A stretch of 64,000 bases of DNA from Candidatus Micrarchaeota archaeon (GCA_018819225.1 JAHJQN010000003.1:1-64000); one strand, 5' to 3'. Positions 18,759-38,117 are shown, counted from the stretch's first letter. Notes: a model not told the origin generated them from the letters alone. A program made the numbers and translations.

Positions 18759-18769
18759 CCGGCGGTAAC

Positions 18770-19780: not shown

Positions 19781-19825
19781 ACCCCTAGAAGAATACGCGC
19801 ATACTACAAGAGACTACTATTTTTT

Positions 19826-20076
19826 TCAGTGATCCGCGTTCGTATTCACGGGTTTCAATGCCAGCGCTTTCACGGTGATCACATCGGCTTTCGTCTTCTT
19901 GCGCAGTTCTTCGCGCTTCGCCTCGTCGCGCAATTGCTGTTCAGCTGTCTTCTCGCCGCCCACCCACTTGTCCATCACCAAACAAGCCGTTAAGTCCCCG
20001 GTAACGTTTATGGCGGTACGGCTCATGTCCAGAATGCGGTCCACTCCAAAAATCAAGGCAATTCCAGCAGCGGGAA
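19826..20076 (-). pseudogene. Displaced 3' fragment of the dicarboxylate/amino-acid:cation symporter gene
   Basis: Encodes PAAGIALIFGVDRILDMSRT...ADVITVKA, near-identical to the C-terminus of 36645-38117, with its own tail and stop. Confidence 0.9.
19864..20076. repeat. 213-bp direct repeat, left copy
   Basis: 9 mismatches versus 36680-36892; 116-bp perfect block 19950-20065. Confidence 0.95.
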
Positions 20077-20138
20077 AAGGAAATAAACAAAATAGGGAAA
20101 CCATCCATGTTCTATTGCCTTAGAAGAAAACACAGAAA

Positions 20139-20224
20139 TATGACTACATATGGAAACGTATGACCACAATGTTTAAAAAGGAGCAAAGTGTAGTCATAAT
20201 ATGAAATTAGCACATATGACTACA
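20139..20224. promoter_or_regulatory. Four TATGAC(T/C)ACA boxes around a TATA-like element upstream of glgE
   Basis: Forward copies at 20139-20148, 20159-20168 and 20215-20224; inverted copy at 20189-20198; TTTAAAAA at 20172-20179. Confidence 0.75.
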
Positions 20225-20250
20225 AGTGAGAATTGAAAGGAACAGGACAA

Positions 20251-22605
20251 ATGGCTTTCATCGAAAAACAAAAACACGGGGGAATCACTTACTACTACCT
20301 AGCCCAATCCATTCGCGTTTCTCCTACAAAAGTGAAGAAGGTCAGGCGCTATTTGGGTAAAACGCTGCCTTCTGGAAAAAAAATCAAAGAGCTCACGACT
20401 CAACTCTCGCAAGGGAGAACAAGCACGAACATAAAGCAAGAAGTCAACATACCTGTTCAGATAACTCCCGAAACCAAGCCAAGAGCGCAAGAACTAAAGA
20501 CTCCTTTAAAAGAACATAAGGAATCAACGCCAAAGCTACCCGTTCCCTGCGTCATAGAAAACGTTTCCCCCGGAATGGATGAAGGACGATTTCCGGCAAA
20601 AAGCGTCATCGGAAAAGCGTTTCGCGTTGAAGCCGATGTGTTCTCACATGGCCATACCGTTCTTCAAGCGGTTCTTCTGCACCGAAGGAAAGGAGATAAG
20701 GAATGGAAAGAGGAGCGAATGGAAATCGTGGAAAACGACCGCTGGAAAGGAGTATTTACTCCTGAGGAGATAGGGGCATACGAATATGCCGTAAACGCAT
20801 GGGAGGATGAATTTCGTTCATGGCAAAAGTTGCTTGGGAAGAAGTGGACGTTGAAACAAGATGTAGTCATAGAAATAAACGTAGGCATACTGATGATTGA
20901 AGAGGCTATGAACGCAGTGGAAGGAGTAGTTCAGAGACAACTTAGAAGCTGGGCCAAACAAATCCGGAAAGAAAATGGGGGGAAGGCCGTAACTCTTGCG
21001 CTATCGGACGCGTTAGCGAAAAATATGAGTGCTTATTCGAGGAAACGCGTAACCCAGTCTCCAGTCATCGAACTATGGGTTGAATCAAAGGAAGCTGAAT
21101 TCAGTACTTGGTACGAGTTGTTCCCGCGTTCCACGTCGGACGACGGAACGCATGGAACGTTCAAGGATGTTGAAAAACGGCTTCCCCTGCTCAAGCACAT
21201 GCATTTCAACGTGCTATACCTTCCACCCATCCACCCCATCGGCGAAACGAATCGCAAAGGAAAGAACAATACGCTGCCTTGCGAACCCGGCGAACCCGGC
21301 AGTCCGTGGGCCATTGGCTCGCATCTCGGAGGCCATACCGCCATACACCCCCAGTTGGGAACACTTAAGGATTTCGATTCCCTTGTGAGAAAAGCGAGAG
21401 AGCAAGGCATTGAAGTGGCCCTAGATATGGCGTTCCAGTGCTCCGCGGATCATCCGTATATCAAGCAGCACCCGAAGTGGTTCAAGTGGAGGCCGGATGG
21501 AAGCATCCATCACGCGGAAAACCCGCCGAAGAAGTATGAGGACATCGTGCCGTTTGACTTTGATTCCGAAGACTGGAAGGCGTTATGGGAAGAGCTCAAG
21601 AACATCGTTCTATTTTGGATTGAAAAAGGAGTGCGTATTTTCCGAGTTGACAACCCGCACACCAAGCCTTTTCCGTTTTGGGAATGGTTGATCCGCACCA
21701 TCAAGAAAACGCATCCTGAAACCATTTTTCTGGCAGAAGCATTCACGCGACCGAAAGTCATGCATCGTCTCGCCAAAGCCGGTTTCACGCAATCGTATAC
21801 CTACTTTTCGTGGAGGAACACGAAATGGGAGCTCACGGAGTACGTGAAGGAATTGATGCGCCGGCCTGAATGCGATTACTTCCGCCCCCACTTCTGGCCG
21901 AACACGCCGGACATTTTGGCCCCCATTCTGCAAAAAGGAGGGAAGCCCGCGTTCAAGATTCGTTTGGCGTTGGCCGCCACCCTTTCATCGAACTACGGGG
22001 TTTACGGACCCGCATTCGAACTGGAAGAACATTTGGCGCTTCCGGAAAAAGAGGAGTATCAGGACTCGGAAAAGTACGAGATAAAGAAATGGGATTGGGG
22101 CCCCGAAAGCGGCATACGGGAATACATGGAGCGCATCAATCGGATACGCGTTGAAAACAAAGCGCTTCAGGAAACGTTCAATGCGCGCATGTTAGCAATA
22201 AACAACGACCACATCCTGACGTTCGAAAAACAAGAGACGGACGGATCGAACGCGTTATTGATCGCCATCTCGTTAGATCCCGTCAACCCGCAGAGCGGTT
22301 GGATGGAGTTGCCGGAATGGGCGAAGCCCGGAGAAGGAGAACGGATGGCCGTAGACGAACTGATCCATCAACGAAGCGTGGTGTGGGACGGGCGAAGCGC
22401 GTTCATCTCGTTGACGCCCGAAACCCCGGCACAGGTTTTGAGGATTCGGGGGGGCTTGAGGGTGCGGCGCATCCCCGAGGAAAAAAGGGCGGCGTTGCGA
22501 AAAACCCTAGAACGCGACCATTCAATGAAAGAAAACCAAGCAACGTCCACTGCATTAAAACAGGATATTAAAGGCGAAACGTCATTTGATTACTATATTT
22601 CGTGA
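20251..22605 (+). CDS. glgE: Alpha-1,4-glucan:maltose-1-phosphate maltosyltransferase GlgE (GH13_3) with extra N-terminal domain
   Basis: 'WYELFPRS', 'YLPPIHPIG..NRKGKNN', 'AENPPKKYEDI', 'FRVDNPHTKP', 'FLAEAFT', 'WPNTPDIL'; likely start MAFIEK at 20251. Confidence 0.95.
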   Translation: MAFIEKQKHGGITYYYLAQSIRVSPTKVKKVRRYLGKTLPSGKKIKELTTQLSQGRTSTNIKQEVNIPVQITPETKPRAQELKTPLKEHKESTPKLPVPCVIENVSPGMDEGRFPAKSVIGKAFRVEADVFSHGHTVLQAVLLHRRKGDKEWKEERMEIVENDRWKGVFTPEEIGAYEYAVNAWEDEFRSWQKLLGKKWTLKQDVVIEINVGILMIEEAMNAVEGVVQRQLRSWAKQIRKENGGKAVTLALSDALAKNMSAYSRKRVTQSPVIELWVESKEAEFSTWYELFPRSTSDDGTHGTFKDVEKRLPLLKHMHFNVLYLPPIHPIGETNRKGKNNTLPCEPGEPGSPWAIGSHLGGHTAIHPQLGTLKDFDSLVRKAREQGIEVALDMAFQCSADHPYIKQHPKWFKWRPDGSIHHAENPPKKYEDIVPFDFDSEDWKALWEELKNIVLFWIEKGVRIFRVDNPHTKPFPFWEWLIRTIKKTHPETIFLAEAFTRPKVMHRLAKAGFTQSYTYFSWRNTKWELTEYVKELMRRPECDYFRPHFWPNTPDILAPILQKGGKPAFKIRLALAATLSSNYGVYGPAFELEEHLALPEKEEYQDSEKYEIKKWDWGPESGIREYMERINRIRVENKALQETFNARMLAINNDHILTFEKQETDGSNALLIAISLDPVNPQSGWMELPEWAKPGEGERMAVDELIHQRSVVWDGRSAFISLTPETPAQVLRIRGGLRVRRIPEEKRAALRKTLERDHSMKENQATSTALKQDIKGETSFDYYIS

Positions 22606-22617
22606 GGTGTCTGAATA

Positions 22618-25600
22618 GTGGCTAACGATTCAACGTTGGAAAACGATCCGCTTTGGTTCAAGGATGCCGTGATCTACGAGGTGCACGTGAAAACGTTTTT
22701 CGACAGCGATGGTGACGGAATCGGCGACTTTAAAGGATTGATTGAAAAACTCGATTACCTGCGCGATTTGGGTGTCACCGCCCTCTGGCTATTGCCGTTT
22801 TATCCCTCGCCCATGAAAGACGACGGATACGATATTGCCGATTACTCGGGCGTGCACCCGACATTCGGATCCGTACGCGACTTCAAGGTATTGCTACGCG
22901 AAGCCCATCGAAAAGGAATTCGTGTCATCACGGAACTCGTGCTCAACCATACATCGGTCGAACACCCGTGGTTCAAGAAATCGCGGCGCGCGCCCAAGGA
23001 TTCGGAATGGCGCAATTTTTACGTGTGGAATGATTCGCCGGACAAGTATAAGGACGCGCGCATCATCTTCAAGGACTTCGAATCATCGAATTGGGCGTGG
23101 GATCCGGTAGCGAAATCGTATTATTGGCACCGGTTTTATTCCATGCAACCGGACCTGAACTTCAATTCGCCTCTCGTGGAAAAAGCCATTTTCAATGTCG
23201 TGGACTTTTGGTTCAAACTGGGCGTGGACGGCATGCGATTGGACGCCGTACCCTATCTTTTCGAGCGCGAAGACACGAATTGCGAAAACCTTCCGGAAAC
23301 GCATGCGTTCCTAAAAAAGCTGAGAGCGCGCATCGATAAAAAGTTCCCGAACCGCATGCTGCTGGCCGAAGCCAACCAATGGCCCACGGATGCCGTCAAC
23401 TATTTCGGTAAAGGCGACGAGTGCCACATGGCCTTCCACTTTCCGCTGATGACGCGCATGTTCATGTCCGTGCAGATGGAAGACCGGTTTCCGCTAATGG
23501 AAATCATTCGTCATACCCCTATCATTCCCGATACGTGCCAGTGGGCCGTCTTTTTGCGCAACCACGATGAACTCACGCTCGAAATGGTTACGGACGAAGA
23601 ACGCGATTACATGTACAGCATGTACGCCAAAGACCGCAAGGCCCGCATCAATCTAGGCATTCGCCGACGGCTCGCGCCATTACTGGAAAATGACCGCCGG
23701 AAAATCGAGCTCATGAACGTATTGTTGTTTACGCTGCCTGGAACGCCCGTCATCTACTACGGTGACGAAATCGGGATGGGCGACAACTATTTCCTGGGGG
23801 ATCGCGATGGCGTGCGGACGCCCATGCAATGGAATGCGGACACGAACGCAGGATTTTCAAAAGCCAATCCGCAACAAGTGTATTTGCCGCCCATCATCGA
23901 CCCCGAATACCATTACCAGACCATCAACGTCTCCAACCAGTCGCACCACCAAAACCTGTTGTGGTGGATGAAGAAAATGATTTCCATTCGCAAGCGGTTC
24001 AAGGCGTTCGGGAGAGGAAGCCTCCGTTTCTTGCAGAACGTCAACCCCAAAATTCTGGCATTCGTCCGAGAAATCGATGGCGAACGCCTGCTGGTGACCG
24101 TCAACTTGTCCCGACAACCGCAAACCGCGTCATTGGACTTGTCCCCATACGTTCAAGGCATTCCCCGCGAAGCATTCGGAAGCATCGAATTCCCGGCCAT
24201 TGAAAAAACACCCTACCCGCTCACGTTCGGTCCCTTCGGATACTATCTCTTCGTGCTCGAGAATCCGGACGTGAAATCCACTTCGACTCCCGCAAAAAAA
24301 ATCGTATTACCCACCGAACAAAGCTTGTGGAAGCCGACGCGCGGCGCGTTGAAACAAAAACTGGAGGAAAACGTGCTTCGGGATTTCCTGAAGAAGTGCC
24401 GATGGTTCGGCGGAAAAGGAAGAAAAATCGATTACGTGGACGTGCGAGAAGCCATTCCCATAGGAAAGATCAAGAAAGGCATTCAAGGCATCCTCGTGCT
24501 CGACGTGAATTACGTGGAAGGAGCACCCGAAACCTATCTGCTTCCAGCGGCATTCGCCCGAGAAGAAAAAGCGAAAGCCTTGGGAGAACAACACCCCGAA
24601 TCCGTGATCGCGCACATCAAAGCCGGGAAAGAGGAAGGCATCTTGTTTGATGCGTTATACGACGAAGCGTTCTGCCGGGAACTCTTGAAACTGGTTTCGA
24701 AAAATCGGGGGGAAATCGGATTGGGATCCAGAGGAAGAATGGACGGCTTTTCCCCGATGTCGCTTAAATCATTGGATGCCCTTTCTCCCGAGCTCCAGCC
24801 CTCCGTTTTATCCGCGGACCAAAGCAACACCTCCGTGGTTTATGGGAACAAACTCATCATCAAGTTCATCCGAAAAACGTCCCACGGACCAAATCCGGAA
24901 CTCGAGATCACGCGGTGGCTCACGAAAAACCGTTTCGCCTATTCGCCCGCCTTGCTGGGAGGCATCGTATACCGCGAGCGCAACTTGGAGGACGCTACCG
25001 TAGCCGTCCTGCAACCATTCATCAAAAACCAGGGATCGGCCTGGAAATTGTTTTCCGACGAGTTCAATCACTTCATGGACCGCGTGCTCCCCCAAAAAAC
25101 GCAGATGGAACAAAAAGAACAGCACGCGCCTTCATCCGACAACAAATTGAGCGGAGACATCAAGACGTTAGTGGGCCCGGTTTTCCTCGAACAAGTGAAA
25201 TTGTTGGGCGAACGCACCGGACAATTCCACCTGGCGCTTACCAGCGACGGGGAGGACGCGGATCTCGCCCCCGAACCCTTCGGGCACTGGGATTCCCTAT
25301 CCATTTCCCAATCCATGATTACGTACGCCGACCGCGTGTTCGAACTCGTCAATACGGCGTCCCCCCAAGATGAAAAAACCGCGAAGGAACTGAAATGGGT
25401 CCTTGAAAACCAGCAGGAAGTGCTGCGCCGATTCGAAGCCATTCGGGGCAAGAAGTTTGTGGCGTTGAAGACGCGCATCCACGGAGACTACCATTTGGGT
25501 CAAGTCCTGTTTACCGGAAACGACTACGTGATCATCGACTTCGAAGGCGAGCCGGCACGGCCGCTCGGTGAGCGACGTTTAAAACGTTCCCCGTTGCGGG

Positions 25601-25959
25601 ATGTCGCGGGAATGATTCGGTCGTTTCATTATGTGGCGTATTCCATGCTGCAATCGAACCTGTCTTTGAAGATGGAGGACCGTGCGTTTGCAGAACAATG
25701 GACGGAGCAATGGTTCCAAAGCGTCAAGCAAGCGTTTTTGGAATCGTACGAAAAAACCGTTGCGCGCACCGACATCGTTCCCAAGGACAAGAATACCTAC
25801 CGATTGCTGTTGGACTCGTTCCTGTTGGAAAAAGCGATTTACGAGTTGGGGTACGAGTTGAACAACCGACCGGAATGGGTGCTCGTTCCCGTGCGCGGCA
25901 TTCAAGCCATTCTAGGAAAACCATATGAATCCGCAGAAAAAAAAGAGGAACGCAAGTAG
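22618..25959 (+). CDS. treS: Trehalose synthase - maltokinase fusion (TreS-Mak/Pep2)
   Basis: 'RLDAVPYL', 'LLAEANQWP', 'FLRNHDELTLEMVTDEER'; C-terminal kinase 'DQSNTS', 'RIHGDYHLGQVL', 'IDFEGEP', 'EKAIYELGYELNNRP'. Confidence 0.96.
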   Translation: MANDSTLENDPLWFKDAVIYEVHVKTFFDSDGDGIGDFKGLIEKLDYLRDLGVTALWLLPFYPSPMKDDGYDIADYSGVHPTFGSVRDFKVLLREAHRKGIRVITELVLNHTSVEHPWFKKSRRAPKDSEWRNFYVWNDSPDKYKDARIIFKDFESSNWAWDPVAKSYYWHRFYSMQPDLNFNSPLVEKAIFNVVDFWFKLGVDGMRLDAVPYLFEREDTNCENLPETHAFLKKLRARIDKKFPNRMLLAEANQWPTDAVNYFGKGDECHMAFHFPLMTRMFMSVQMEDRFPLMEIIRHTPIIPDTCQWAVFLRNHDELTLEMVTDEERDYMYSMYAKDRKARINLGIRRRLAPLLENDRRKIELMNVLLFTLPGTPVIYYGDEIGMGDNYFLGDRDGVRTPMQWNADTNAGFSKANPQQVYLPPIIDPEYHYQTINVSNQSHHQNLLWWMKKMISIRKRFKAFGRGSLRFLQNVNPKILAFVREIDGERLLVTVNLSRQPQTASLDLSPYVQGIPREAFGSIEFPAIEKTPYPLTFGPFGYYLFVLENPDVKSTSTPAKKIVLPTEQSLWKPTRGALKQKLEENVLRDFLKKCRWFGGKGRKIDYVDVREAIPIGKIKKGIQGILVLDVNYVEGAPETYLLPAAFAREEKAKALGEQHPESVIAHIKAGKEEGILFDALYDEAFCRELLKLVSKNRGEIGLGSRGRMDGFSPMSLKSLDALSPELQPSVLSADQSNTSVVYGNKLIIKFIRKTSHGPNPELEITRWLTKNRFAYSPALLGGIVYRERNLEDATVAVLQPFIKNQGSAWKLFSDEFNHFMDRVLPQKTQMEQKEQHAPSSDNKLSGDIKTLVGPVFLEQVKLLGERTGQFHLALTSDGEDADLAPEPFGHWDSLSISQSMITYADRVFELVNTASPQDEKTAKELKWVLENQQEVLRRFEAIRGKKFVALKTRIHGDYHLGQVLFTGNDYVIIDFEGEPARPLGERRLKRSPLRDVAGMIRSFHYVAYSMLQSNLSLKMEDRAFAEQWTEQWFQSVKQAFLESYEKTVARTDIVPKDKNTYRLLLDSFLLEKAIYELGYELNNRPEWVLVPVRGIQAILGKPYESAEKKEERK

Positions 25960-27856
25960 CGTGGCATCGGAAGTGTGGGAGTACCGGCGACTTAGTGAAA
26001 TGGATGCCTATCTCTTCAAGGAAGGAACGCACAGTCGTTTGTATGAAAAATTCGGGGCCCACATCATGGAAGTGGACGGCACGTCCGGCACGAGTTTCGG
26101 GGTTTGGGCCCCGCACGCAAAAAAAGTTTCCATCATCGGTGATTTCAATGATTGGAACAAACAAGCTCACCCGCTGATCGCAGGCGACGAGGGCACGTGG
26201 GGCGGCTTCCTTCCCGGAGTCCCAAGGGGAGCGCGGTACAAGTATTTCATTGAGTCGCGCGTAGGCGGTTACCGGACCGATAAAGGCGATCCCTTCGCGT
26301 TTCAATGGGAGACGCCTCCGGCGACTGCATCCATCGTTCATTCCGATTCATACGAATGGAAGGACCGCGCGTGGATGAGCCAACGCCGGAAACGAAATGC
26401 GCATGACGCGCCCCTATCCATTTACGAGATGCATATGGGTTCATGGAAAAGCGGGGAAGGCGGCCGCGTGGAGTACCAAGTGCTGGCACCGTTGGTGGCA
26501 GATTACGTAAACGATTTGGGGTTTACGCACATCGAATTACTGCCGATCATGGAACACCCGTTCTACGGATCCTGGGGGTATCAAACCACGGGATTCTATG
26601 CGCCGACTGGCCGGTACGGGCGGCCTGAAGACTTGAAGTATTTCATCGATTACTTGCACCAGAAGAATATCGGCGTGTTTCTGGATTGGGTGCCCTCGCA
26701 TTTTCCGTCCGACGAACACGGCCTCGCATTTTTCGACGGCACGCATTTGTTCGAACCGGATGACGCGCGCCGCCGCATTCAGCCGGACTGGAACAGTTAT
26801 ACCTTTGATTTCACGAAAAAAGAGGTATGCTCGTATTTGACGAGCAACGCCTGTTTCTGGCTCGACCGATACCATGCCGATGGGCTGCGCGTGGACGCGG
26901 TCGCGTCCATGCTCTATTTGGATTACTCGCGTAAGCCCGGGGAATGGACGCCGAACGTGCGAGGAGGAAGAGAAAATTTGGAAGCCATCGACTTCTTAAA
27001 AAAAATGAATGAAACGGTCTACCGAGAATTTCCGGACGTCCAGATGACGGCGGAAGAGTCGACCGCTTGGCCCATGGTATCGCGGCCCACGTACGCAGGC
27101 GGACTGGGGTTCGGCATGAAATGGAACATGGGTTGGATGCACGATACGCTAACCTATTTTTCCAAAGACCCGGTGTTTCGTCCATTCCATCACGACCAAC
27201 TCACGTTTAGCATCTTGTACGCATTCTCTGAAAACTTTATTCTCCCGTTATCCCACGATGAAGTCGTGTACGGAAAAGGATCTCTGTTGAACAAGATGCC
27301 CAAAGACGAATGGCAAAAATTGGCTAACATGCGTTTGTTACTCGCCTATTTTTTTGCGCACCCCGGAAAAAAACTGTTGTTCATGGGAGGCGAGTTCGGG
27401 CAATGGACGGAGTGGTCGCATGAAAAAAAACTGGACTGGAATCTATTGGAGCAGTCTCCTCACCAGGGCATTCGACGACTCACCCAAGATTTGGCGCGCG
27501 CCTACCGCAACGAACCATCCCTTCATGAAAGGGATTTCGAACCCGACGGATTCGAATGGGTCGAATGGTGGGACCGCCAAGCCGGAGTGGTCAGTTTTCT
27601 GAGGAAAACGCATGACGCGAAGGAAGATGTATTGGTGGTACTGAACTTCACGCCGGTGCCTCGCACCGCGTACCCCATTCATGTTAAACGAAAAGGAGTC
27701 TGGAAAGAAATACTGAATACGGATTCCGCTGATTATGGCGGGAGCGGTCAAGGCAATTTGGGGCAGGTTAAAACACGAGAGCACGCGCAAAAAGGCATTG
27801 TCCTGAGTTTGACACTTCCGCCGCTGGGCGCCATATTCTTGAAATGCGGGGAATGA
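25925..27856 (+). CDS. glgB: 1,4-alpha-glucan branching enzyme (GH13_9)
   Basis: 'EHPFYGSWGYQ', 'DWVPSHF', 'GLRVDAVASMLY', 'AEEST', 'LSHDEVV'. Confidence 0.96.
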   Translation: MNPQKKKRNASSVASEVWEYRRLSEMDAYLFKEGTHSRLYEKFGAHIMEVDGTSGTSFGVWAPHAKKVSIIGDFNDWNKQAHPLIAGDEGTWGGFLPGVPRGARYKYFIESRVGGYRTDKGDPFAFQWETPPATASIVHSDSYEWKDRAWMSQRRKRNAHDAPLSIYEMHMGSWKSGEGGRVEYQVLAPLVADYVNDLGFTHIELLPIMEHPFYGSWGYQTTGFYAPTGRYGRPEDLKYFIDYLHQKNIGVFLDWVPSHFPSDEHGLAFFDGTHLFEPDDARRRIQPDWNSYTFDFTKKEVCSYLTSNACFWLDRYHADGLRVDAVASMLYLDYSRKPGEWTPNVRGGRENLEAIDFLKKMNETVYREFPDVQMTAEESTAWPMVSRPTYAGGLGFGMKWNMGWMHDTLTYFSKDPVFRPFHHDQLTFSILYAFSENFILPLSHDEVVYGKGSLLNKMPKDEWQKLANMRLLLAYFFAHPGKKLLFMGGEFGQWTEWSHEKKLDWNLLEQSPHQGIRRLTQDLARAYRNEPSLHERDFEPDGFEWVEWWDRQAGVVSFLRKTHDAKEDVLVVLNFTPVPRTAYPIHVKRKGVWKEILNTDSADYGGSGQGNLGQVKTREHAQKGIVLSLTLPPLGAIFLKCGE

Positions 27857-29664
27857 ATCGAATGCTTCACGGACCCCTGTTGAATAACGACGAAGCGCGT
27901 TTCAATGTATGGGCGCCCCATCGAAACCATGTGGCGGTGCGCGTTAAGGACGACGTGCAATCCATGAAACGGGAATACAACGGCATTTGGAGTACTACCT
28001 TGTCCGGAGCGCGAATGGGAACGCGCTATTCCTTTTTGTTGGATGAAACATTGGACCGCCCGGATCCCGCATCGCATTTCCAGCCGGAAGGCGTTCACCA
28101 ATCATCGGAACTCGTTGACCATAACGTGTTCGAATGGGATGACGATCATTGGCGAGGTCCGAATCCCGCGTCCCTCATAATATACGAACTGCATGTGGGC
28201 ACGTTTACTCGAAAAGGAACCTTCGATGGCGTGATCCGCAGATTACGCGAACTCAAGGAACTCGGCATTACTGCTTTGGAGCTCATGCCCGTATCCCCGT
28301 TTCCAGGAACCCGCAATTGGGGGTACGATGGCGTATACCCTTACGCGGTTCAGCATTCGTACGGAGGACCACATGGATTGAAAAGGCTCGTCAACGCGGC
28401 CCATCAAGAAAACATCGCCGTCCTATTAGACGTGGTGTACAACCATTTGGGTCCGGAAGGCAATTATTTCGCGGATTTCGGACCCTACTTTACGGAACGT
28501 TATTCCACGCCGTGGGGAAAGGCCATCGACTTCGACGGAAAAAACGCTCAACCCGTACGCGCGTATTTCATTCAGAATGCCTTGCATTGGATGGCGCATT
28601 ATCGAATGGATGGACTGCGGTTGGATGCCATTCACGCGATTTTCGACCGGAGCCGAAAACACGTGCTCAAGGAACTCGCAGAAGAAGTAACGCGGTATGA
28701 GAAAAAAAGCGGCCGCCAACGCATACTCATCGCCGAAAGCGATTTGAATGATTCGAAAGTCGTGCGCCCATGGACCCAAAAAGGGTATGGAATCAATGAG
28801 CAGTGGCTGAATGATTTTCATCACAGCATCCATGGACTCCTCACGCATGAAACGCAGGGCTACTACGAGGATTTTAAGGGACTGGACTCCCTCGTCAAGT
28901 GCCTGAATGAAGGATTCGTTTATTCGGGCCAATACTCGCGGTACCGAAAGCGCCATCACGGCAATGCGACCCATGATATGTCACCTCGGCACTTTGTTTC
29001 ATTTATCCAAAGCCATGACGAAGTCGGCAATCGGGCTCTCGGAGAACGCTTGTCGTCCCTGGTTTCATTTCCAGTACTGAAGGTCGCGGCCAGCCTATTG
29101 TTTTTTTCGCCATACACGCCCATGTTGTTTATGGGAGAAGAGTATGGCGAACGACATCCGTTCCAGTATTTTATCAGCCATTCGGATGCCCGTTTGATTC
29201 AGGCGGTTCGCAGCGGCCGTAAGAAAGAATTTTCAGCCTTTCGATGGAAAGACCGCTTGGCGGATCCACAAGATCCTAAAACCTTCCTTCGTTCAATACT
29301 CAGTGAAACCAAACCATTCACGGGAAAGGCGCGTCATTTAAGGGAAGCGTATCAAACGCTCTCTTCCCTCAGAAAAACCATTCCGGCGCTATCGGATCCC
29401 AAACGCCGGTATACCCATGCGTGGGCGGACAAAAAAAACAAGGTGTTGTACCTGAGTCGCAAGGGATACCGGTCTCAGGTACTAGCGATTTTTCACTTCG
29501 GGCGCCCGCCCATAACCATTCATTTACCGTTCCGGGGCGAACGATGGCAAAGGGTCTGGGACTCCGAAAATAATCAAAGGAAAGCAAACCCGCTAGCTCC
29601 CGACAAGGCCATACGCTTAAAGAACATGCATTCGATCCTATTGGAAAAGGTGAACAACGAATGA
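27844..29664 (+). CDS. treZ: Malto-oligosyltrehalose trehalohydrolase
   Basis: 'RNWGYDGV', 'DVVYNHLGPEGNY', 'LRLDAIHAI', 'LIAESD', 'QSHDEVGNRALGER'. Confidence 0.95.
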   Translation: MRGMNRMLHGPLLNNDEARFNVWAPHRNHVAVRVKDDVQSMKREYNGIWSTTLSGARMGTRYSFLLDETLDRPDPASHFQPEGVHQSSELVDHNVFEWDDDHWRGPNPASLIIYELHVGTFTRKGTFDGVIRRLRELKELGITALELMPVSPFPGTRNWGYDGVYPYAVQHSYGGPHGLKRLVNAAHQENIAVLLDVVYNHLGPEGNYFADFGPYFTERYSTPWGKAIDFDGKNAQPVRAYFIQNALHWMAHYRMDGLRLDAIHAIFDRSRKHVLKELAEEVTRYEKKSGRQRILIAESDLNDSKVVRPWTQKGYGINEQWLNDFHHSIHGLLTHETQGYYEDFKGLDSLVKCLNEGFVYSGQYSRYRKRHHGNATHDMSPRHFVSFIQSHDEVGNRALGERLSSLVSFPVLKVAASLLFFSPYTPMLFMGEEYGERHPFQYFISHSDARLIQAVRSGRKKEFSAFRWKDRLADPQDPKTFLRSILSETKPFTGKARHLREAYQTLSSLRKTIPALSDPKRRYTHAWADKKNKVLYLSRKGYRSQVLAIFHFGRPPITIHLPFRGERWQRVWDSENNQRKANPLAPDKAIRLKNMHSILLEKVNNE

Positions 29665-32084
29665 ACCAACACGTTTGCATACACGGACACTTCTATCAGC
29701 CCCCGCGCGAAAATCCGTGGCTGGAGGAAGTGGAAATACAGGAAGCCGCTTATCCGTTCCACGATTGGAATGACCGCATCACGGAAGAATGTTACAAACC
29801 CAACCTCACGGCCCGAGTCATCGACGAGCACGGGTTGATCACCGACTTGATCAACAATTTTTCGACGATCAGCTTCAATGTCGGGCCCACGTTATTATCC
29901 TGGATGGAACGGCATAAACCAAATACGTACGCAGCGATCATTGAAGCGGACGAAAACAGCATGAAAAAATTCAGCGGGCATGGAGCCGCCATGGCGCAGG
30001 TATACAACCACATGATCATGCCACTCGCGCACCCGCGAGACAAAATCACGCAAGTGCGCTGGGGAATCCAAGATTTCAAGAAGCGTTTTCGCCGAGACCC
30101 CGAAGGCATGTGGCTTCCCGAAACCGCGGTGGACACCGAAACGCTTGAGGTCCTTGCGCAACACGGAATACGGTTCACGGTATTGGATCCCCGGCAAGCC
30201 AAAAAAGTGCGGCGCATCAACGGACGACGATGGGTCGACGTATCCGATAGCCGCATTGCCCCGCAGTACCCATACCTATGCCACCTACCGTCAGGAAAAA
30301 CCATCACCCTCTTTTTTTACGACAAACCCATTTCACAAGACATCGCGTTCGGGGGCTTATTGAAGAACGGGGAACGATTCGCGCATCGGATTCTCGAAGG
30401 GTTTTCACCCAAGGACAAGCCGCAGTTGGTGCACGTGGCAACGGACGGGGAAACGTACGGCCACCACCAAAAGAAAGGCGAAATGGCCTTAGGATATGGA
30501 TTGCATTACTTGGAGAGCCGCGAACTCGCCAAGATAACGATCTATGCGGAATTTCTGGAGCGTTATCCTCCTGAACACGAAGTCACTATCGCGGAACGAA
30601 GCGCTTGGAGCTGCGCGCACGGCGTGGACCGATGGTGGAAAGACTGCGGATGCAACAGCGGCAGCAGACCGGGCTGGCATCAACGCTGGCGCGAACCCTT
30701 ACGAAATGCGTTGGACTGGCTGCGAACCCACCTAATGGGCATCTACGAAAGGGAAGCGGCTGCATACGTCAAAGATCCGTGGCAAACGCGAGACGATTAT
30801 ATCTCGGTAGTACTCGACCGCTCCGCGGAAAACGTCGAAGCCTTCTTTACGGCGCACGGGATCCGCCCGCTTTCAGACGACGAAAAACAGAGGCTCCTGA
30901 AGCTACTGGAAATGTCGCGCCACGGCATGCTCATGTACACGAGCTGCGGATGGTTCTTCGATGAAATATCGGGCATTGAAACCGTTCAAGTCATTCAATA
31001 CGCCGCGCGGGCGTCCCAACTGGCCCAAGAGGTATCCGGAGAAGACCTGGAAAGCACATTCGTCCGGTTGCTGGAAAAAGCGCCAAGTAATGTATCCGAA
31101 GTCGGGCATGGAGCCAACGTGTTCCACCGATTCGTAAAACCCGCTTCCCTGGACCTCGTCAAAGTAGCGGCCCATTTCGCCCTCTCAAGCATTTTCGACA
31201 ACACGCGGAATCGCGCATTCAACATGTACTGTTATCAAGTAGAAGAAAAAGCCAACGAAATAACGGAGTCTGGGAAACACCGGCTTTCCGTCGGGCAGTT
31301 ACGCATTTCCTCCCGCATCACAAGGGAAACGCAACACGTCAGTTACGGGGTCTTGTGGCTGGGAGACCACAACTTGTTTGGAGGCGTGCGGCCTTATCGA
31401 AATGAAAAAGACTTTACACAGCTCAAACAGGAATTGCGCGAGCAATTCGAGAAAGCGGAAGTACCCCAGCTTGCTCACCTCATCGAAAAACACTTTGAAG
31501 CCGGACGGTACTCCTTGAGAGACCTTTTCCGGGACGAGCAGCGCAAAACCATCGACTATATTCTCGATTCATCCGTAAAGAACGCGTTGGTGCTCTATAA
31601 AAAAATTTTCGAGGATCATTATACGCTCATACGGTACGTGAATGACTTGGGGATTCACCGGCTCGGCCCCCTTCAAATTGCGGCGGAAGAAGTGTTCCAG
31701 AACGAATTGATTCAAGGACTTAAAGCACCTGATCTCGACTGGAATGCGCTGGAAAAAACCGCTTTGGAGATCAACCGTTTTTCCATCTTGACGGACTGGC
31801 AACCGGTCCGAATGGAAGCCGAAGCCCGCCTCAACAACGAAACAGCGCGTTGGGCCGAAGACCCCCTCCAGGTCAGCCGGATCGAGACGCTGTTGCGCCT
31901 TTCCGTGCTCTACGCTCACCTGCCCATCGAACCCGATTGGCGAGAACTGCAAAACCAAGTATTTATCATTGGAAAAAAATATTTTGAACCAAAAGAGAAG
32001 GCGTCGAAAAAAGGAGGCGTTCACGCCCAACAATGGGCGAACGCGTTCGCTCAACTGAGCCGCCAAGTAGGGGTCAAGTTCTGA
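29661..32084 (+). CDS. GH57 glycoside hydrolase with DUF3536
   Basis: 'IHGHFYQPPRENPW', 'GMWLPETAVD', 'ATDGETYGHH', 'WSCAHGV.RW', 'MYTSCGWFFDE'. Confidence 0.93.
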   Translation: MNQHVCIHGHFYQPPRENPWLEEVEIQEAAYPFHDWNDRITEECYKPNLTARVIDEHGLITDLINNFSTISFNVGPTLLSWMERHKPNTYAAIIEADENSMKKFSGHGAAMAQVYNHMIMPLAHPRDKITQVRWGIQDFKKRFRRDPEGMWLPETAVDTETLEVLAQHGIRFTVLDPRQAKKVRRINGRRWVDVSDSRIAPQYPYLCHLPSGKTITLFFYDKPISQDIAFGGLLKNGERFAHRILEGFSPKDKPQLVHVATDGETYGHHQKKGEMALGYGLHYLESRELAKITIYAEFLERYPPEHEVTIAERSAWSCAHGVDRWWKDCGCNSGSRPGWHQRWREPLRNALDWLRTHLMGIYEREAAAYVKDPWQTRDDYISVVLDRSAENVEAFFTAHGIRPLSDDEKQRLLKLLEMSRHGMLMYTSCGWFFDEISGIETVQVIQYAARASQLAQEVSGEDLESTFVRLLEKAPSNVSEVGHGANVFHRFVKPASLDLVKVAAHFALSSIFDNTRNRAFNMYCYQVEEKANEITESGKHRLSVGQLRISSRITRETQHVSYGVLWLGDHNLFGGVRPYRNEKDFTQLKQELREQFEKAEVPQLAHLIEKHFEAGRYSLRDLFRDEQRKTIDYILDSSVKNALVLYKKIFEDHYTLIRYVNDLGIHRLGPLQIAAEEVFQNELIQGLKAPDLDWNALEKTALEINRFSILTDWQPVRMEAEARLNNETARWAEDPLQVSRIETLLRLSVLYAHLPIEPDWRELQNQVFIIGKKYFEPKEKASKKGGVHAQQWANAFAQLSRQVGVKF

Positions 32085-34642
32085 TGCACGCACCCGTGGC
32101 TACATACCGATTGCAATTCAACCCGGAATTCGCATTTCGTGACGCGGCGAAAATCATCCCATACCTGGATTCGCTGGGAGTCAGCACCATTTACGCCAGC
32201 CCGATCTTCCAAGCCCGTAAAAAAAGCATGCACGGATATGATATCGTTAACGTTCGGCAAATCCGGAACGAGCTCGGAGGAACGCAGGGTTTCCAACGAT
32301 TACTGAAAGCCGTTCGGAGGAAAAAAATGAACTGGCTGCAAGACATCGTGCCCAACCACATGGCATACGATCGGGATAATGCGTGGTTGATGGATGTACT
32401 ACTTAAAGGAAAAGGATCGCGGTACCGCTTTTTTTTCGACGTGGATTGGAACCACCCTTCCCCTGCATTGAAAGGAAGGGTGCTGGCGCCGTTTCTCGGC
32501 AAACCGTATTCGCAATGTCTTCGGGACAGCGAACTGATAATTGAATGGAAAAACGGGTGGCGCGTCCGATATTTTGATACCCTTTTCCCGATCGCGCTGC
32601 CTCGAAATAGTCATGGCAGAGTGCAAGCATCGTTTCGCGGGCACGCTCCAGATCGAAAAGTATTGGAAGAGTGGATGGAACAGCAGCACTATCGCCTCAC
32701 GGACTGGAGAACCACGGCACACGAAACCAATTACCGTAGATTCTTCGACATCAATGGCCTCATAGCCATCTCCGTAGAACATCCCCGCGTCTTCAAAGCC
32801 ACGCATCGACTCATACGCCGTATGTCGCGATGGAAAGGAATCATCGGTTTTCGAGTCGACCACGTCGACGGATTGAAGGACCCCCGCGGGTATCTAGCCA
32901 GGCTTCGGAAAACCGTGCGCGACTACATCATCATTGAAAAAATATTGGCAGAAAATGAAGTGCTTAATGATTGGCCCATCCAAGGAACAACGGGGTACGA
33001 GTTTCTCTATAACGTGAACGGATTATTCGTGGATAAAAAAAAGGAGCCGGCATTTAATGAAATATATACCGCGTTTACGGGAGTACACGGATCTCCCGAA
33101 CAACGCGCCTTCCACACCCGACTTCAAGTAGCCCGCAACTTGTTTTTTGGGGATGCAAAGAATCTGGCCCGCATGGCGCTCGCAACTTCGAAGAAACCCC
33201 GAAGTGACCAATCCGTGGAAGAAGTGGCGAAAGCGTTGTGTCGACTTATGGCGGCATTTCCCGTATACCGCACCTATTTTGAAAAAAAACATTGGAACGT
33301 TAAAGACCAACAAACGATGCAAGACGTTTTTCGCGCCGTAGCATCCAAGTCAAAAAAACAACAACGCCTATTCCGACTGCTTCAACAGTCTTTCGAGACC
33401 GCGGGTAATCGTTCCCCTTCCCGAGCATTCGTGACACGCTTCCAACAATACACGGGCGCAGTCATGGCAAAAGGTTTCGAGGACACGTTCATGTTCCGGT
33501 ACAACCGCCTGCTGTCCCTCAATGAAGTCGGCGGAAACCCCGCTCGATTCGGAATAAGCCCGGAATCCATGCACGCATTCGGGGTTCAGCGCCAACAATC
33601 GAACCCGTTGTCGCTCAACGCATCCAGTACGCACGATACGAAGCGAGGGGAAGATGCGCGGGCACGGTTGAACGTGTTGTCTGAAATTCCGGACGAATGG
33701 AAATCGCATCTCCGTAAATGGGCTCACCTCAACGCGCATTGGAAGCAAAAAAAAAACGGAAGCGCCATTCCTACCCCCAATGAAGAATATTATTTTTATC
33801 AAACGTTGCTGGGAGCCCAACCGTTCGGAAAACCTACTGGGTTGTTTCGCGATCGACTTAAAGAGCACATGACGAAAGCGTTGAGGGAAGCCAAGGAGCA
33901 TTCCAGTTGGACGGCTCCATCACAAGCATACGAAGAAGCAACCCAGCAGTTCATTGACCGCGTAATGCATCCTCGAAGAAACCAAGCGTTTCTTCACTCA
34001 TTCCGCGTGTTTAAAGACCGCGTAGCAGAGTTTGGCATATGGAACTCTCTTTCTCAAACCCTCATCAAAATCACGTTTCCAGGCGTTCCGGATATATACC
34101 AAGGAAGCGAAAGCTGGAATTACTCCTTAACGGATCCAGACAACCGAACACCCGTTTCGTATGCATCCCTGCAGAAAAAAATGAAACGACTTCCGAGAAC
34201 CGCTACTCCATCCAGTATACGACAATGGCTGAAACACCGTTCGGATGGACGTATTAAACTATTCGTCGTGCGCTCGAGCCTTCAACTGCGAAAGCAACAC
34301 CGCGTCCTGTTTGAAAAAGGAACGTATAGTCCACTCTACTTCCAAGGCCCGAAAAAACATCACGCGTTCGGATATCTTCGTCAACATCAGAATGATGCAG
34401 TCATGGTCGTTGTTCCTCGACTTGTTGCGACGCTATGCAAGAATCAACGAATACCATTTGGAAAACGAGCTTGGGAAAACACGCACGTGCTACTGCCGTC
34501 GAACGCACCCAACACGTGGAGAAATATTTTTACAAACGAAATCATTATTGCTACTCAAAGACGCGGGCAACCAACGATCGCATGCGCAGATCTCATGCAA
34601 CGGTTTCCCGTATCCCTGTTGGTTCCCGTGAAAACCATATGA
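32084..34642 (+). CDS. treY: Malto-oligosyltrehalose synthase
   Basis: 'ATYRLQF', 'DIVPNHM', 'NYRRFFDIN', 'RVDHVDGL', 'IEKIL', 'STHDTKRGED'; ATG at 32084 overlaps the upstream TGA. Confidence 0.95.
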   Translation: MHAPVATYRLQFNPEFAFRDAAKIIPYLDSLGVSTIYASPIFQARKKSMHGYDIVNVRQIRNELGGTQGFQRLLKAVRRKKMNWLQDIVPNHMAYDRDNAWLMDVLLKGKGSRYRFFFDVDWNHPSPALKGRVLAPFLGKPYSQCLRDSELIIEWKNGWRVRYFDTLFPIALPRNSHGRVQASFRGHAPDRKVLEEWMEQQHYRLTDWRTTAHETNYRRFFDINGLIAISVEHPRVFKATHRLIRRMSRWKGIIGFRVDHVDGLKDPRGYLARLRKTVRDYIIIEKILAENEVLNDWPIQGTTGYEFLYNVNGLFVDKKKEPAFNEIYTAFTGVHGSPEQRAFHTRLQVARNLFFGDAKNLARMALATSKKPRSDQSVEEVAKALCRLMAAFPVYRTYFEKKHWNVKDQQTMQDVFRAVASKSKKQQRLFRLLQQSFETAGNRSPSRAFVTRFQQYTGAVMAKGFEDTFMFRYNRLLSLNEVGGNPARFGISPESMHAFGVQRQQSNPLSLNASSTHDTKRGEDARARLNVLSEIPDEWKSHLRKWAHLNAHWKQKKNGSAIPTPNEEYYFYQTLLGAQPFGKPTGLFRDRLKEHMTKALREAKEHSSWTAPSQAYEEATQQFIDRVMHPRRNQAFLHSFRVFKDRVAEFGIWNSLSQTLIKITFPGVPDIYQGSESWNYSLTDPDNRTPVSYASLQKKMKRLPRTATPSSIRQWLKHRSDGRIKLFVVRSSLQLRKQHRVLFEKGTYSPLYFQGPKKHHAFGYLRQHQNDAVMVVVPRLVATLCKNQRIPFGKRAWENTHVLLPSNAPNTWRNIFTNEIIIATQRRGQPTIACADLMQRFPVSLLVPVKTI

Positions 34643-36627
34643 ATCATCTTGCGCTTAATACGCTGGCACGGCAGTATGGAATCCAAACGCAGTACCAAGA
34701 CGCCTCCGGAAAAAAAAGGCGGCCTCCTGAACGAACCATTCTGGCCCTTCTGAATGCGTTGGGTTGCCCCATCCATAAAAAAGAAGAGGCAGCATCCTGG
34801 CTTAAAAAAGAACAATTATTGAAATGGCGGCGAACGCTGGACCCCGTAATCATTAACTGGGACAAGGAAACGCTTCACGTACCAATTCGTATTCCCGAAA
34901 GCGAATCGAAAGCAACCTATTCGTACTTGCTACAATTAGAAAACGGAGAAATACGTCGGGGAGTCGCTCGAATGAAAAACGCGCGTACGAAACAACGATG
35001 GGGACCAAACGGACACGCATTTTTGTTAAAGGACATCCGAATTCCAACGAAGCTGCCATGGGGGTACCACCAATTACATATGCGAATTAAAAAGAAAAAA
35101 GCGAGTGCCTACGTCATAACCGCACCTCGTAAAGCAGCTGCTCCTCATCAAAGAAAAACATGGGGCGTGTTTTTACCCCTTCATGCATTTCACTCCGTGA
35201 AGAACCCGTACCCCGCGTATACCGCATGGAGCGCGTTCGTTGGCTGGATAAAAGAAATGAAAGGGGGCGTCGTGGCAACACTTCCTTGGCTTCCCTTGTT
35301 CTTAGAAAATGAAGGGGATGTGAGTCCGTATTCTCCGGTCAGCCGACTCGCCTGGAACGAATTATGGATTGGCTCTCCAAAACCAGATACCCGTTCATCG
35401 ACAGCGAATCCTTCAGAACACGATTTCCTCAACTATGCCGCTCTCTGGAAAAAACGGAAAAAGGCCCTTGAAACAGAGGCGCTGGCCATGAAACCCGGAA
35501 GCGGTAAAAACTATACGGCATTTCAGCGTTTTCAGAGAAATCACCCTACCGTGCAAGCGTATGCGTTATTCCGAGCGCAGAAGATGATGAAAAAAAGGAA
35601 TCAAAGGAAGATGAGTCAAGTCATCAAAATGTTTGCCTATGCCCAATTCGCAGCTGACCAACAAATCCGAATGCTTTCTGAGAAAGCCCGTTGCCAAGGA
35701 GTGCAATTGTATCTCGATTTTCCTCTCGGAGTCCATCCGCAAGGATTTGACGTGTCGGCGTACCCCCAGTCATTTGTACCGGAAGCGCGGGTAGGTGCTC
35801 CTCCGGACCCAGTATTCAAACGAGGCCAAGATTGGGGATTCTTTCCGCTACATCCGCGCCGATTGAGGGAGCAAGGGTATCACTATTTCCATAACTGCTT
35901 ATCGCATCACATGACGTACGCCGATATTTTACGCATTGACCATATCATGGGACTGCACCGTCTTTGGATGATTCCAAAGGATGCGACCTCGGACGAAGGC
36001 GCGTACGTTCATTACAACGCGGAAGAAATGTACGCGGTATTGTGCCTCGAATCTCGTCGGCACCACACCACCATCGTAGGAGAAAATCTAGGAACCGTGC
36101 CTCCCACGGTCAACAAAGCCATGCAACGGCACGGATTGCTCTCCATGTACGTGCTCCAGTACGAGCTGGCTACTGAGGTGCGACCACCACCCGTACCTCA
36201 CAATACGGTAGCCAGTTTGAATACACACGACATGCCGTTATTTTCAGCGTTTTGGAGCGGAAAAGACATTTCCGTTATGACCAAACGACGCGTTTGGAGA
36301 CCAGACGATGCAAAACGCGAAAAACAGTTTAGAAACAAGACGCGAACGGCTTTCTCACGGTATCTTCAACGAAACGGATTTCTTCGGACGCCGTCAACGG
36401 ACACCACAAGCGTTCGAAACGCCGCACACGCTTTCTTAGGTAAATCAAAAGCGGCGCTCGTCGTGTTGAATCTGGAAGATGTATGGAACGAAACCCGGCC
36501 ACAAAATGTTCCTTCAACGAACAGCCGCTTCAATTGGCGGAGGAAAACGAAATACACGTTCGACGCATTCCGAAAACGAGTGGATGTTCTGGAAGCGTTG
36601 GAAGAAATGAAAGAGACCCGAAAATAA
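34639..36627 (+). CDS. malQ: 4-alpha-glucanotransferase (amylomaltase, GH77)
   Basis: 'SPYSPVSR', 'GAPPD...GQDWG', 'LRIDHIMGLHR', 'GENLG', 'NTHDMP'; ATGA overlap with treY. Confidence 0.93.
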   Translation: MNHLALNTLARQYGIQTQYQDASGKKRRPPERTILALLNALGCPIHKKEEAASWLKKEQLLKWRRTLDPVIINWDKETLHVPIRIPESESKATYSYLLQLENGEIRRGVARMKNARTKQRWGPNGHAFLLKDIRIPTKLPWGYHQLHMRIKKKKASAYVITAPRKAAAPHQRKTWGVFLPLHAFHSVKNPYPAYTAWSAFVGWIKEMKGGVVATLPWLPLFLENEGDVSPYSPVSRLAWNELWIGSPKPDTRSSTANPSEHDFLNYAALWKKRKKALETEALAMKPGSGKNYTAFQRFQRNHPTVQAYALFRAQKMMKKRNQRKMSQVIKMFAYAQFAADQQIRMLSEKARCQGVQLYLDFPLGVHPQGFDVSAYPQSFVPEARVGAPPDPVFKRGQDWGFFPLHPRRLREQGYHYFHNCLSHHMTYADILRIDHIMGLHRLWMIPKDATSDEGAYVHYNAEEMYAVLCLESRRHHTTIVGENLGTVPPTVNKAMQRHGLLSMYVLQYELATEVRPPPVPHNTVASLNTHDMPLFSAFWSGKDISVMTKRRVWRPDDAKREKQFRNKTRTAFSRYLQRNGFLRTPSTDTTSVRNAAHAFLGKSKAALVVLNLEDVWNETRPQNVPSTNSRFNWRRKTKYTFDAFRKRVDVLEALEEMKETRK

Positions 36628-36644
36628 GAATTGCGGTTAGTTCG

Positions 36645-38117
36645 TCACGGGCTCAACGAACTGGATGCCTTAGGAGCTGGCGCTTTCACGGTGATCACAT
36701 CGGCTTTCGTCTTCTTGCGCAGCTCTTCGCGCTTCGCCTCGTCCTTCAACTGCTCTTCAGCGGTTTTCTCGCCGCCCACCCACTTGTCCATCACCAAACA
36801 AGCCGTTAAGTCCCCGGTAACGTTTATGGCGGTACGGCTCATGTCCAGAATGCGGTCCACTCCAAAAATCAAGGCAATTCCGGCAGCGGGAATGCCGACT
36901 CCACCTAATACCAACGAAAGAATCGCGATTCCGATGCCAGGAGTCGCTGGCGCGCCAATGGAGGCAACGACTACGGTAACGACAATGAACGCCAACGCGC
37001 TAAGCCCCAAATCCAGGCCGAATACTTGCGCGAGAAAAACAGCGGCGACTCCTTGGTATAATGCCGTGCCGTCCATGTTGACTGTGGCGCCCAACGGAAT
37101 AATAAAATGCGAAATGGACGGACGCACGCCTAACTTCTCTTCGGCAGTGCGCATGGATAGCGGCATGACTACCGCAGAGCTTGACGTGGAAAACGCAAGA
37201 AGTTGAGCATCTCGAATGGCTCCCATGAACACCCACGGGTTCTTGCCCGCAACTATCCACACCAACGCCAAATAGAAAACGAGCAGCAAAACAAGTCCCA
37301 GCAATACCACGCCCACGTACGCCGACAAGCCCGTTAACGTTTCAATCCCAAAACGCGAAGTCAATTGCGCCATGAGCCCGAACACGGCCAGCGGAGCCAA
37401 CAACATCGCCCACTTGACGATCGTCATGCATACTTGCTGCAACGAGCCCAACAATTCAAGCAGCGGTCGCGACTGCTTCGTGTCCATGTTCACGAGAGCG
37501 ATCCCGAAAATCAATGAAAATATGACGAGCTGCAACATTTCGCCATTAATGGCAGACCCCAACGGATTCGTGGGGAGCAACGTGCCCACCAACCCCGGAA
37601 TTTCTTTAAACGAAGGAGTCGCCATCCGGCTCTGATTGATTTCAAGCGAATCCGTGCCGATCACGTCCGCAGCGAATTCCTGGCTGACGAACTGTCCGGG
37701 ATTCAACCACGAAGCTAACGCGATACCGATTACAATGGCGAGCGTGGTCGTCAAAATGAAGTAAATGGCGAGTACCGTGCCCTTTTTTTTCAGCTGCTGC
37801 ATGCTCTCGCTCGCGGCAATCCCGCGAATAATGGATGCGAAAATAAGCGGAATAACAATCATTTGAATGACGCGCAAGAACACGTTGCCGGGCAAACCCA
37901 TCCATTCCCCTAGCGCATACGACGTGGCGGGATCAATGAAACCGAAGTAAGGCCTCATGAGGAAGCCGGCCAGGATGCCGAAAACCATTGCGATAATGAT
38001 TTTCAGCCACAACCGGCCTTTCACGAGCCCTTCCAAATGCTCGCTCAAGTATTTCAGGGGGCGCGGGTGAATACTGGCCAACGGATTAGAAGAATCTGGT
38101 TTCGGCACGATGCACAA
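36645..38117 (-). CDS. Dicarboxylate/amino acid:cation symporter (DAACS, GltP/GltPh family)
   Basis: 'AFSTSSS', 'PLGATVNMDGTALY', 'DRILDMSRTAINVTGD'. Confidence 0.95.
   Translation of the reverse strand: MCIVPKPDSSNPLASIHPRPLKYLSEHLEGLVKGRLWLKIIIAMVFGILAGFLMRPYFGFIDPATSYALGEWMGLPGNVFLRVIQMIVIPLIFASIIRGIAASESMQQLKKKGTVLAIYFILTTTLAIVIGIALASWLNPGQFVSQEFAADVIGTDSLEINQSRMATPSFKEIPGLVGTLLPTNPLGSAINGEMLQLVIFSLIFGIALVNMDTKQSRPLLELLGSLQQVCMTIVKWAMLLAPLAVFGLMAQLTSRFGIETLTGLSAYVGVVLLGLVLLLVFYLALVWIVAGKNPWVFMGAIRDAQLLAFSTSSSAVVMPLSMRTAEEKLGVRPSISHFIIPLGATVNMDGTALYQGVAAVFLAQVFGLDLGLSALAFIVVTVVVASIGAPATPGIGIAILSLVLGGVGIPAAGIALIFGVDRILDMSRTAINVTGDLTACLVMDKWVGGEKTAEEQLKDEAKREELRKKTKADVITVKAPAPKASSSLSP
36680..36892. 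repeat. 213-bp direct repeat, right copy (inside the intact symporter gene)
   Basis: Matches 19864-20076. Confidence 0.95.

Follow-up and report, generated by a model that had tools for sequence, protein, structure and literature searches.

A duplicated symporter gene end flanks a bacterial-type glucan operon with a captured Fic promoter in a Candidatus Micrarchaeota archaeon: a probable scar of operon acquisition by homologous recombination

Genomic islands at tRNA and tmRNA genes, the integrated elements of archaea, and the integrase-less cis-mobilizable elements and mobilizable genomic islands (CIME/MGI) are bracketed by direct repeats that equal the 3' end of the target gene, which is thereby restored. 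Such islands have a defined attachment (att) core for a tyrosine integrase, which is either on board or comes from a cognate element. An arrangement of this kind in a protein-coding gene, that of the element e14 in the icd gene of Escherichia coli, was reportedly described by Hill et al. in 1989, as a later paper cites it. In E. coli K-12, e14 (and likewise phage 21) occupies icd, and about 15 kb of inserted DNA separate icd from the orphan pseudogene icdC (PMC13626634). Between icd and icdC the substitutions are silent or conservative, and excision produces a functional in-frame chimera (PMC13626634). An account of E. coli conjugation (PMC3240628) describes how a single crossover of a circle carrying a truncated gene end leaves gene-end duplications of 109-950 bp, and the same paper describes homology-facilitated illegitimate recombination, in which one junction is homologous and the other illegitimate. 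In this study, we analyze a stretch of 64,000 nt from a Candidatus Micrarchaeota archaeon (GCA_018819225.1, JAHJQN010000003.1:1-64000; hereafter the window), in which two copies of the 3' end of an SDF symporter gene enclose a seven-gene alpha-glucan/trehalose operon. We show that the duplication is a real recombination scar and that nothing marks the enclosed block as a self-mobile island; its interest lies in how readably it preserves the way a DPANN archaeon acquired an operon and captured a promoter, and not in any new mobility mechanism.

The direct repeat measures 213 nt, of which 204 are identical (204/213, 95.8%), and its two copies, L and R (Table 1), are 16,816 nt apart. Whole-genome BLAST recovers it as a single pair in the 1.37-Mb, 8-contig genome, with no third copy. 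Read in the orientation of the gene (minus strand), it consists of 10 identical nt, one mismatch, 116 identical nt, a 43-nt patch with eight mismatches, and 43 identical nt; the longest identical stretch is therefore 116 nt, or 127 nt if one mismatch is allowed. Copy R closes the intact SDF symporter gene, which ends ...VKAPAPKASSSLSP, and copy L lies inside an orphan open reading frame (ORF) that ends ...VKALALKPVNTNADH. The orphan has 92 codons; it holds the last 76 symporter codons in frame and then continues into its own tail, ALALKPVNTNADH, and its own stop. The preliminary description of this DNA had reported a 213-bp repeat with nine mismatches, a 116-bp perfect block and an offset of 16,816 bp, with eight of the nine mismatches on the 3' side of the perfect block in the gene sense, and our recomputed repeat agrees on each of these points. 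The geometry that it proposed, an intact gene with one 3' end and an orphan 3' end beyond the insert, holds as well. Its view of a protein gene as the target stands insofar as the SDF 3' end is duplicated, but this target is itself a rare accessory gene, present in only one of 400 other Micrarchaeota genomes searched.

The sequence differences between the two copies are informative about their history. Seven codons differ, five of them silently and two conservatively (Q/E, and an R/K pair changed at all three bases). Silent changes are in excess over random change (P=0.013), the mismatches are clustered (8 in 43 nt, P~4e-4), and the C-terminal helix of the closest SDF homologs (..AEEE..R..EDVI) is present in both copies. 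Because the changes are mostly silent and are gathered in the 43-nt patch, the two copies are the ends of two alleles which diverged under selection, while both coded working proteins, and which were partly homogenized later. Duplication in situ followed by neutral decay was rejected in view of the same clustering and silent-change excess. At the 5' side, the homology between the intact gene and the orphan ends abruptly at 20076/20077, with microhomology of at most 2 nt; past the repeat toward the stops, the tails are faintly alike (APAPK vs ALALK) and then unrelated. The sharp 5' break would fit an illegitimate junction, and the fading toward the stops would fit two natural gene ends. Besides the promoter boxes described below, no hairpin or inverted repeat was found at the block junctions.

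Table 1. Coordinates of the features of the locus, in window positions
Feature	Position	Strand	Evidence
Multi-pass membrane protein, 233 aa, left flank (context of allele B)	19079-19780	+	ORF; convergent with orphan
Orphan ORF, SDF symporter 3' end (allele B)	19826-20104	-	PF00375 E=5e-12; copy L 19864-20076
Fic-type promoter and leader	20077-20250	+	Four TATGACYACA boxes around TTTAAAAA TATA-like box
First 52 codons of MAFIEKQ-type Fic gene	20251-20406	+	Matches N-termini of ~300-aa proteins in relatives
Linker, ~45 codons, joining Fic part to glgE in frame	20407-20545	+	
glgE (maltosyltransferase) with captured N-terminus	20251-22605	+	PF11896, PF21702, PF00128
treS-mak (trehalose synthase-maltokinase fusion)	22618-25959	+	TIGR02456 876 bits, TIGR02457 470 bits, both above cut-off
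glgB (branching enzyme)	25925-27856	+	NF003811 939 bits
treZ (malto-oligosyltrehalose trehalohydrolase)	27853-29664	+	TIGR02402 703 bits
GH57/DUF3536 glucan enzyme	29661-32084	+	PF12055 E=9e-116, PF03065
treY (malto-oligosyltrehalose synthase)	32084-34642	+	TIGR02401 899 bits
malQ (4-alpha-glucanotransferase)	34639-36627	+	TIGR00217 218 bits, PF02446
Intact SDF (DAACS) symporter, allele A tail APAPKASSSLSP	36645-38108 (start alternatively 38117)	-	PF00375 E=9e-117; copy R 36680-36892
cysK-like, DsbA-like and NifS/IscS-like genes, upstream of symporter	38168-41267	-	Same strand as symporter

The closest known geometry is that of e14/icd in E. coli. As there, the insert lies in the 3' end of a protein gene, the working gene carries the insert-side copy, a displaced C-terminal fragment remains at the far end, and the copies differ by silent and conservative changes. 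In contrast, the prophage e14 recombines through a site-specific system and excises upon SOS induction, whereas the block described here has neither a recombinase nor a phage gene, its cargo is a metabolic operon, its host is a DPANN archaeon and its target is an accessory gene. Thus, repeats equal to the 3' end of the target do bracket the insert, one completing the gene and the other left as an orphan, but membership in the class fails on the integrase, which the element does not encode, and on foreign content, since the composition of the block is native and a lineage-typical Fic promoter with 5' coding sequence makes up its left end. Unlike the tRNA/tmRNA islands and CIME/MGI, neither an att core nor an integrase was found here; there is no att match to a cognate element, and the repeat is without a third copy in the genome. 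Compared with the E. coli account of Campbell-type insertion, the present locus is similar in lacking an integrase, in having the gene end duplicated on both sides and in having one junction set by the end of a fragment. It differs from that system, a laboratory plasmid with identical sequences, in being natural and archaeal (RadA), with diverged alleles and a mosaic repeat. Homology-facilitated illegitimate recombination would account for the sharp 20076/20077 junction with its microhomology of at most 2 nt, although it typically deletes recipient DNA instead of leaving a duplication.

Seven plus-strand genes fill the interval between the copies (20251-36627) with gaps of at most 12 nt, and the stops of malQ and SDF are 17 nt apart. 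TreS, Mak, GlgB, TreZ, TreY and MalQ all score above their NCBIfam cut-offs, and the complete GlgE-pathway/TreYZ set, comprising GlgE, the TreS-maltokinase fusion, GlgB, TreY, TreZ and MalQ, is present with every member intact. The same gene sub-orders are found in bacterial contigs; the best GlgE homologs are likewise bacterial, about 660 aa long and at most 55% identical, and they start about 9 residues before VIENV. Neither glgE nor malQ was found in 40 relatives. The tetranucleotide distance of the glucan block (51st-66th percentile) is ordinary for this genome. At its C-terminus (22400-22605), the GlgE protein has an insertion of about 35 residues ahead of the terminal conserved ETSFDYY, compared with the bacterial homologs.

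In the left 350 bp of the block, which are of native origin, the promoter of a Fic gene typical of the archaeal order is followed by the first 52 codons of that gene. The 120 nt upstream of the glgE ORF align with the Fic promoters of five relatives, and in the upstream alignment (A2; Fic genes of five relatives from five genera) the conserved core is TATGACCACAAT-TTTAAA-TGTAGTCATA; the TATGACYACA boxes begin at 20139, 20159, 20189 (inverted) and 20215. The Fic part itself is 46-58% identical to its matches, except in one relative, where a longer span aligns at 37%; E-values are 2e-14 to 3e-11 for the best five and at most 4e-5 for the rest, and the matching protein in one relative (G026) is Fic (PF02661). 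No full ortholog of the MAFIEKQ-type Fic gene was found in this genome. Since codons 35 to 109 of the glgE ORF include no start codon in frame, glgE has no start of its own there and relies on the captured Fic promoter and start codon, and the whole operon probably does likewise. The truncated host-lineage Fic gene at the left end further indicates that the block was once resident in a Micrarchaeote chromosome before the duplication event. In the same alignment, the TATGACYACA boxes and the 52-residue N-terminal module form a conserved Fic-gene unit across the archaeal order. It is plausible that this module, now carried by GlgE, acts as a DNA-binding autoregulator. A motif upstream of the Fic genes of the relatives (GACTTTGC...) was considered as an att-like signal and rejected, as it is not repeated in this genome.

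The claim in the preliminary description that no recombinase is on board is borne out, as the seven glucan-metabolism genes between the copies leave no room for one. For the integrase acting in trans that it offered as one route, the only candidate found genome-wide is one tyrosine recombinase of unassigned function (PF00589, contig C2); there is no serine recombinase (PF00239). Its picture of an integrated island is right about the geometry and the missing recombinase but not about a self-contained foreign element, given the Fic left end and the ordinary composition. The Campbell-type integration that it suggested remains a good candidate mechanism, as a one-off between related genomes and not as a mobile-island lifestyle. 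In keeping with the Campbell model, the duplicated segment flanks the insert, with a sharp non-homologous break on one side and fading gene tails on the other, and the host has a recombinase of the RecA/RadA type (RadA; PF08423, 289.6 bits, C3:77424-78140).

The block lacks mobility functions of its own. We give roughly even odds (about 0.5) to a one-off event in which a piece of a close relative's chromosome was inserted by homologous recombination, either through a RadA-type single crossover or with homology on one side only. As regards the parents, the direction of transfer and the recombination pathway, we infer the following. Two closely related Micrarchaeota genomes carrying different alleles of one accessory SDF symporter would have recombined once, and the repeat would be the scar. 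One parent would have had the membrane protein gene convergent with SDF(B); the other would have had SDF(A) tail to tail with the bacterial-type alpha-glucan/trehalose operon, which by then was already expressed from the Fic promoter and start that it had captured. The segment transferred would have extended from just upstream of the Fic promoter to about codon 409 of SDF(A). It may have entered as a circularized fragment, by one RadA-mediated crossover within the common SDF end (Campbell type), or as linear DNA, by one homologous and one illegitimate junction. In either case, the working gene would have taken the tail of the incoming allele, and the resident end would have been left as an orphan. 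The alternation of identical, divergent and identical segments in the repeat might then reflect patchy heteroduplex repair or later gene conversion.

Several points weigh against this interpretation. In the collections searched, no genome with either parental arrangement was found. Full-length identity to the nearest SDF does not exceed 59%, identity to the nearest GlgE is 55%, and with homologs so distant the two-parent scenario is a conjecture. Moreover, a simple two-allele crossover alone does not account for the mosaic. The score of the symporter is under every NCBIfam equivalog cut-off (GltP, DctA, SstT), it was not found in the 40 relatives, and no relative has it at >61% identity; the sole other Micrarchaeote SDF (genome G388) is without the C-terminal tail and stands in an unrelated context. 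The nearest homologs (73% identical in the C-terminal part) come from bacteria, from bacteria of the candidate phyla radiation (CPR), and from a few DPANN metagenome-assembled genomes. No full-length allele-B gene occurs in 5.8 billion proteins, where the 90% cluster of the symporter comprises merely three start-codon variants of one gene, and the neighbors that recur around 160 SDF homolog loci have none in common with the window.

It is unlikely, though still worth serious attention, that the locus arose by unrelated events in a plasticity zone. In that case the orphan would be what is left of another SDF gene, originally complete, after deletion of its 5' 1.2 kb; this second gene would be a paralog or an earlier acquired allele, and the duplication would be causally unlinked to the arrival of the operon. 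The window from its first position to about 39 kb is indeed lineage-specific, with the defense modules, membrane protein, SDF, glg cluster and cysK missing from relatives, and two truncated gene pieces, one from the 3' end of SDF and one from the 5' end of Fic, stand back to back. The pattern of silent changes means that the orphan was once part of a working gene, and an array of att relics ends about 1 kb to the left. Such an origin would nevertheless need a pair of directly oriented SDF genes placed precisely on either side of the operon, and at least one extra deletion. Furthermore, SDF is very rare in the phylum, which makes it unlikely that one locus held two independent copies, except as a product of the recombination that we propose.

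A broader reading of the single-crossover insertion is that the block is the largest case of recombinase-independent, gene-end-templated DNA movement among Micrarchaeota. We regard this as improbable, and equally so its corollary that such segments pass from cell to cell among relatives, bring a diverged functional replacement for the gene end that they interrupt, enter by RadA-mediated recombination at a short conserved core and stay excisable.

It is likewise improbable that the block is a mobile island without an integrase, for which the 127-nt block would serve as the att core of a recombinase encoded elsewhere, and the 16.8-kb unit would excise and reintegrate into SDF genes. The geometry is the same as that of e14/icd and of the tRNA islands, and the long identical block adjoins the sharp junction. 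Yet the genome, which is 90% complete, has just the one tyrosine and no serine recombinase, and the repeat is found nowhere else in it. The target gene is nearly absent from the phylum and hence a poor landing site, the left end of the unit is a truncated host gene, neither junction has a hairpin or att-like motif, and the composition is native.

There is a slim chance that a small Fic cassette inserted at the SDF end made the duplication and that the 3' part of Fic subsequently gave way to the glucan operon. This idea draws on one relative (G011), in which the Fic gene with its promoter stands between 58-nt direct repeats 1,123 bp apart, and on the orphan directly abutting the Fic promoter. 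Against it, four other relatives are without repeats around Fic, Fic here points the other way with respect to the gene that bears the repeat, and a second precise event is needed to bring the malQ stop within 17 nt of that of SDF. The repeats in that relative (contig C6, 641-698 and 1764-1821) are 91% identical and lie just past the stop of the neighboring gene, and a second repeat family of 27 nt occurs nearby at 591, 623 and 2727. They suggest that the Fic module is cassette-like there.

Misassembly is unlikely. A MEGAHIT k141 contig (ENA, 423 kb) begins at window position 18259 and spans both copies; it matches the window perfectly over 18259-32605 and departs from it once (at 33752) over 26639-44627. 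Because k (141) is greater than the longest identical block (116/127 nt), both junctions rest on real k-mers, and the assembly is sound at the repeat. The NCBI, JGI and ENA records all contain the same gene. It is thus scarcely credible that the arrangement is an artifact, in the form of a collapsed or chimeric join at a repeat common to two strains: the Logan k=31 contig, which covers exactly 20036-36709, breaks at the repeated 31-mers as expected, so the graph is ambiguous at small k, but the k141 contig crosses both copies and the three records agree, with a single-nucleotide difference between window and ENA contig over 18259-44627.

The single-crossover insertion bears on how DPANN archaea change their metabolism. 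Their genomes are tiny, and metabolic gain in them is poorly documented at the level of DNA junctions. This locus keeps three readable junctions: the displaced end of a transporter gene, the sharp illegitimate join, and the in-frame Fic-glgE fusion, which supplies a bacterial-type glgE with a native Fic promoter, start codon and N-terminal module. Together they would offer a concrete case in which an imported seven-gene GlgE/TreS/TreYZ pathway has been wired into an archaeal chromosome and passed between relatives without a dedicated integrase. In addition, the two repeats, 16.8 kb apart, form a natural route to an in-frame deletion that could switch the glucan pathway off. Given the common reading frame, the near-perfect 127-nt block would permit RadA-dependent loss of the operon now and then, with a hybrid symporter gene, still in frame, as the product.

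To the right of the block, conserved synteny is first encountered at the NifS and DsbA genes (39.2-41.3 kb). Their counterparts (63% and 57% identical, respectively) also stand together in one relative (G001, contig C50), where an M20 peptidase gene takes the place of cysK-SDF; theirs is the only synteny with relatives. The glucan cluster was found in none of the 40. The nifS/iscS-like, DsbA-like, cysK-like and SDF genes (36645-41267, minus strand) share one orientation and are separated by short gaps. Serine or cyst(e)ine for this sulfur module may enter the cell through the symporter. The 233-aa membrane protein on the left matches no Pfam family and was found neither in the 40 relatives nor in the 400 other genomes of the phylum; among 5.8 billion proteins it has two homologs (38-40% identity), neither of which adjoins an SDF gene.

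Contig C4 (27,178 nt), the first and last 131 nt of which are 98.5% identical, was considered as a plasmid that might supply a recombinase and was rejected, because it has housekeeping genes aboard (thioredoxin reductase, D-aminoacyl-tRNA deacylase and asparaginase). The end repeat probably lies within large repetitive surface-protein genes. The genome has 12 tRNAs as predicted by ARAGORN.

The region left of 19 kb is a defense region. It contains toxin-antitoxin (TA) modules, an HNH nuclease, an Eco57I/MmeI-like type IIG restriction-modification enzyme, a DUF4411 PIN-like protein with an HTH-IrrE/M78 partner, an M48 peptidase-like protein, an AAA ATPase and a UvrD-nuclease. From 1 to 16000 it is compositionally foreign, with a GC fraction of 0.37-0.52 and a tetranucleotide distance in the 95th-99th percentile. 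Gene-end relics at 1878-4829 were considered as related sequences and rejected, as they are unrelated to SDF. At 18760-18900 (plus strand) there is a degenerate tRNA-Leu 3' end (..CCCTCCCTGCA), followed by a trailer of about 100 nt with two hairpins and by a second CCCCCCTGCATTCAGACC. The same trailer follows both tRNA-Leu genes of the genome (C1:145600, C7:14810), and weaker copies of the core occur in the array of TA cassettes at the start of the window (249-263 and 916-930). In view of the tRNA-Leu end, the trailer and the core copies, the first 18.9 kb look as if they were accreted as modules at a tRNA-Leu-type att site; this att motif (18781/18886) is absent from the ends of the glucan block. 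The ENA k141 contig starts inside the UvrD/PD-(D/E)XK gene, at 18259, and a Logan contig starts at 18798, beside the palindrome GACCTTTTTCAAAAAAGGTC. These breaks of other assemblers at the edge of the defense region possibly come from strain variation.

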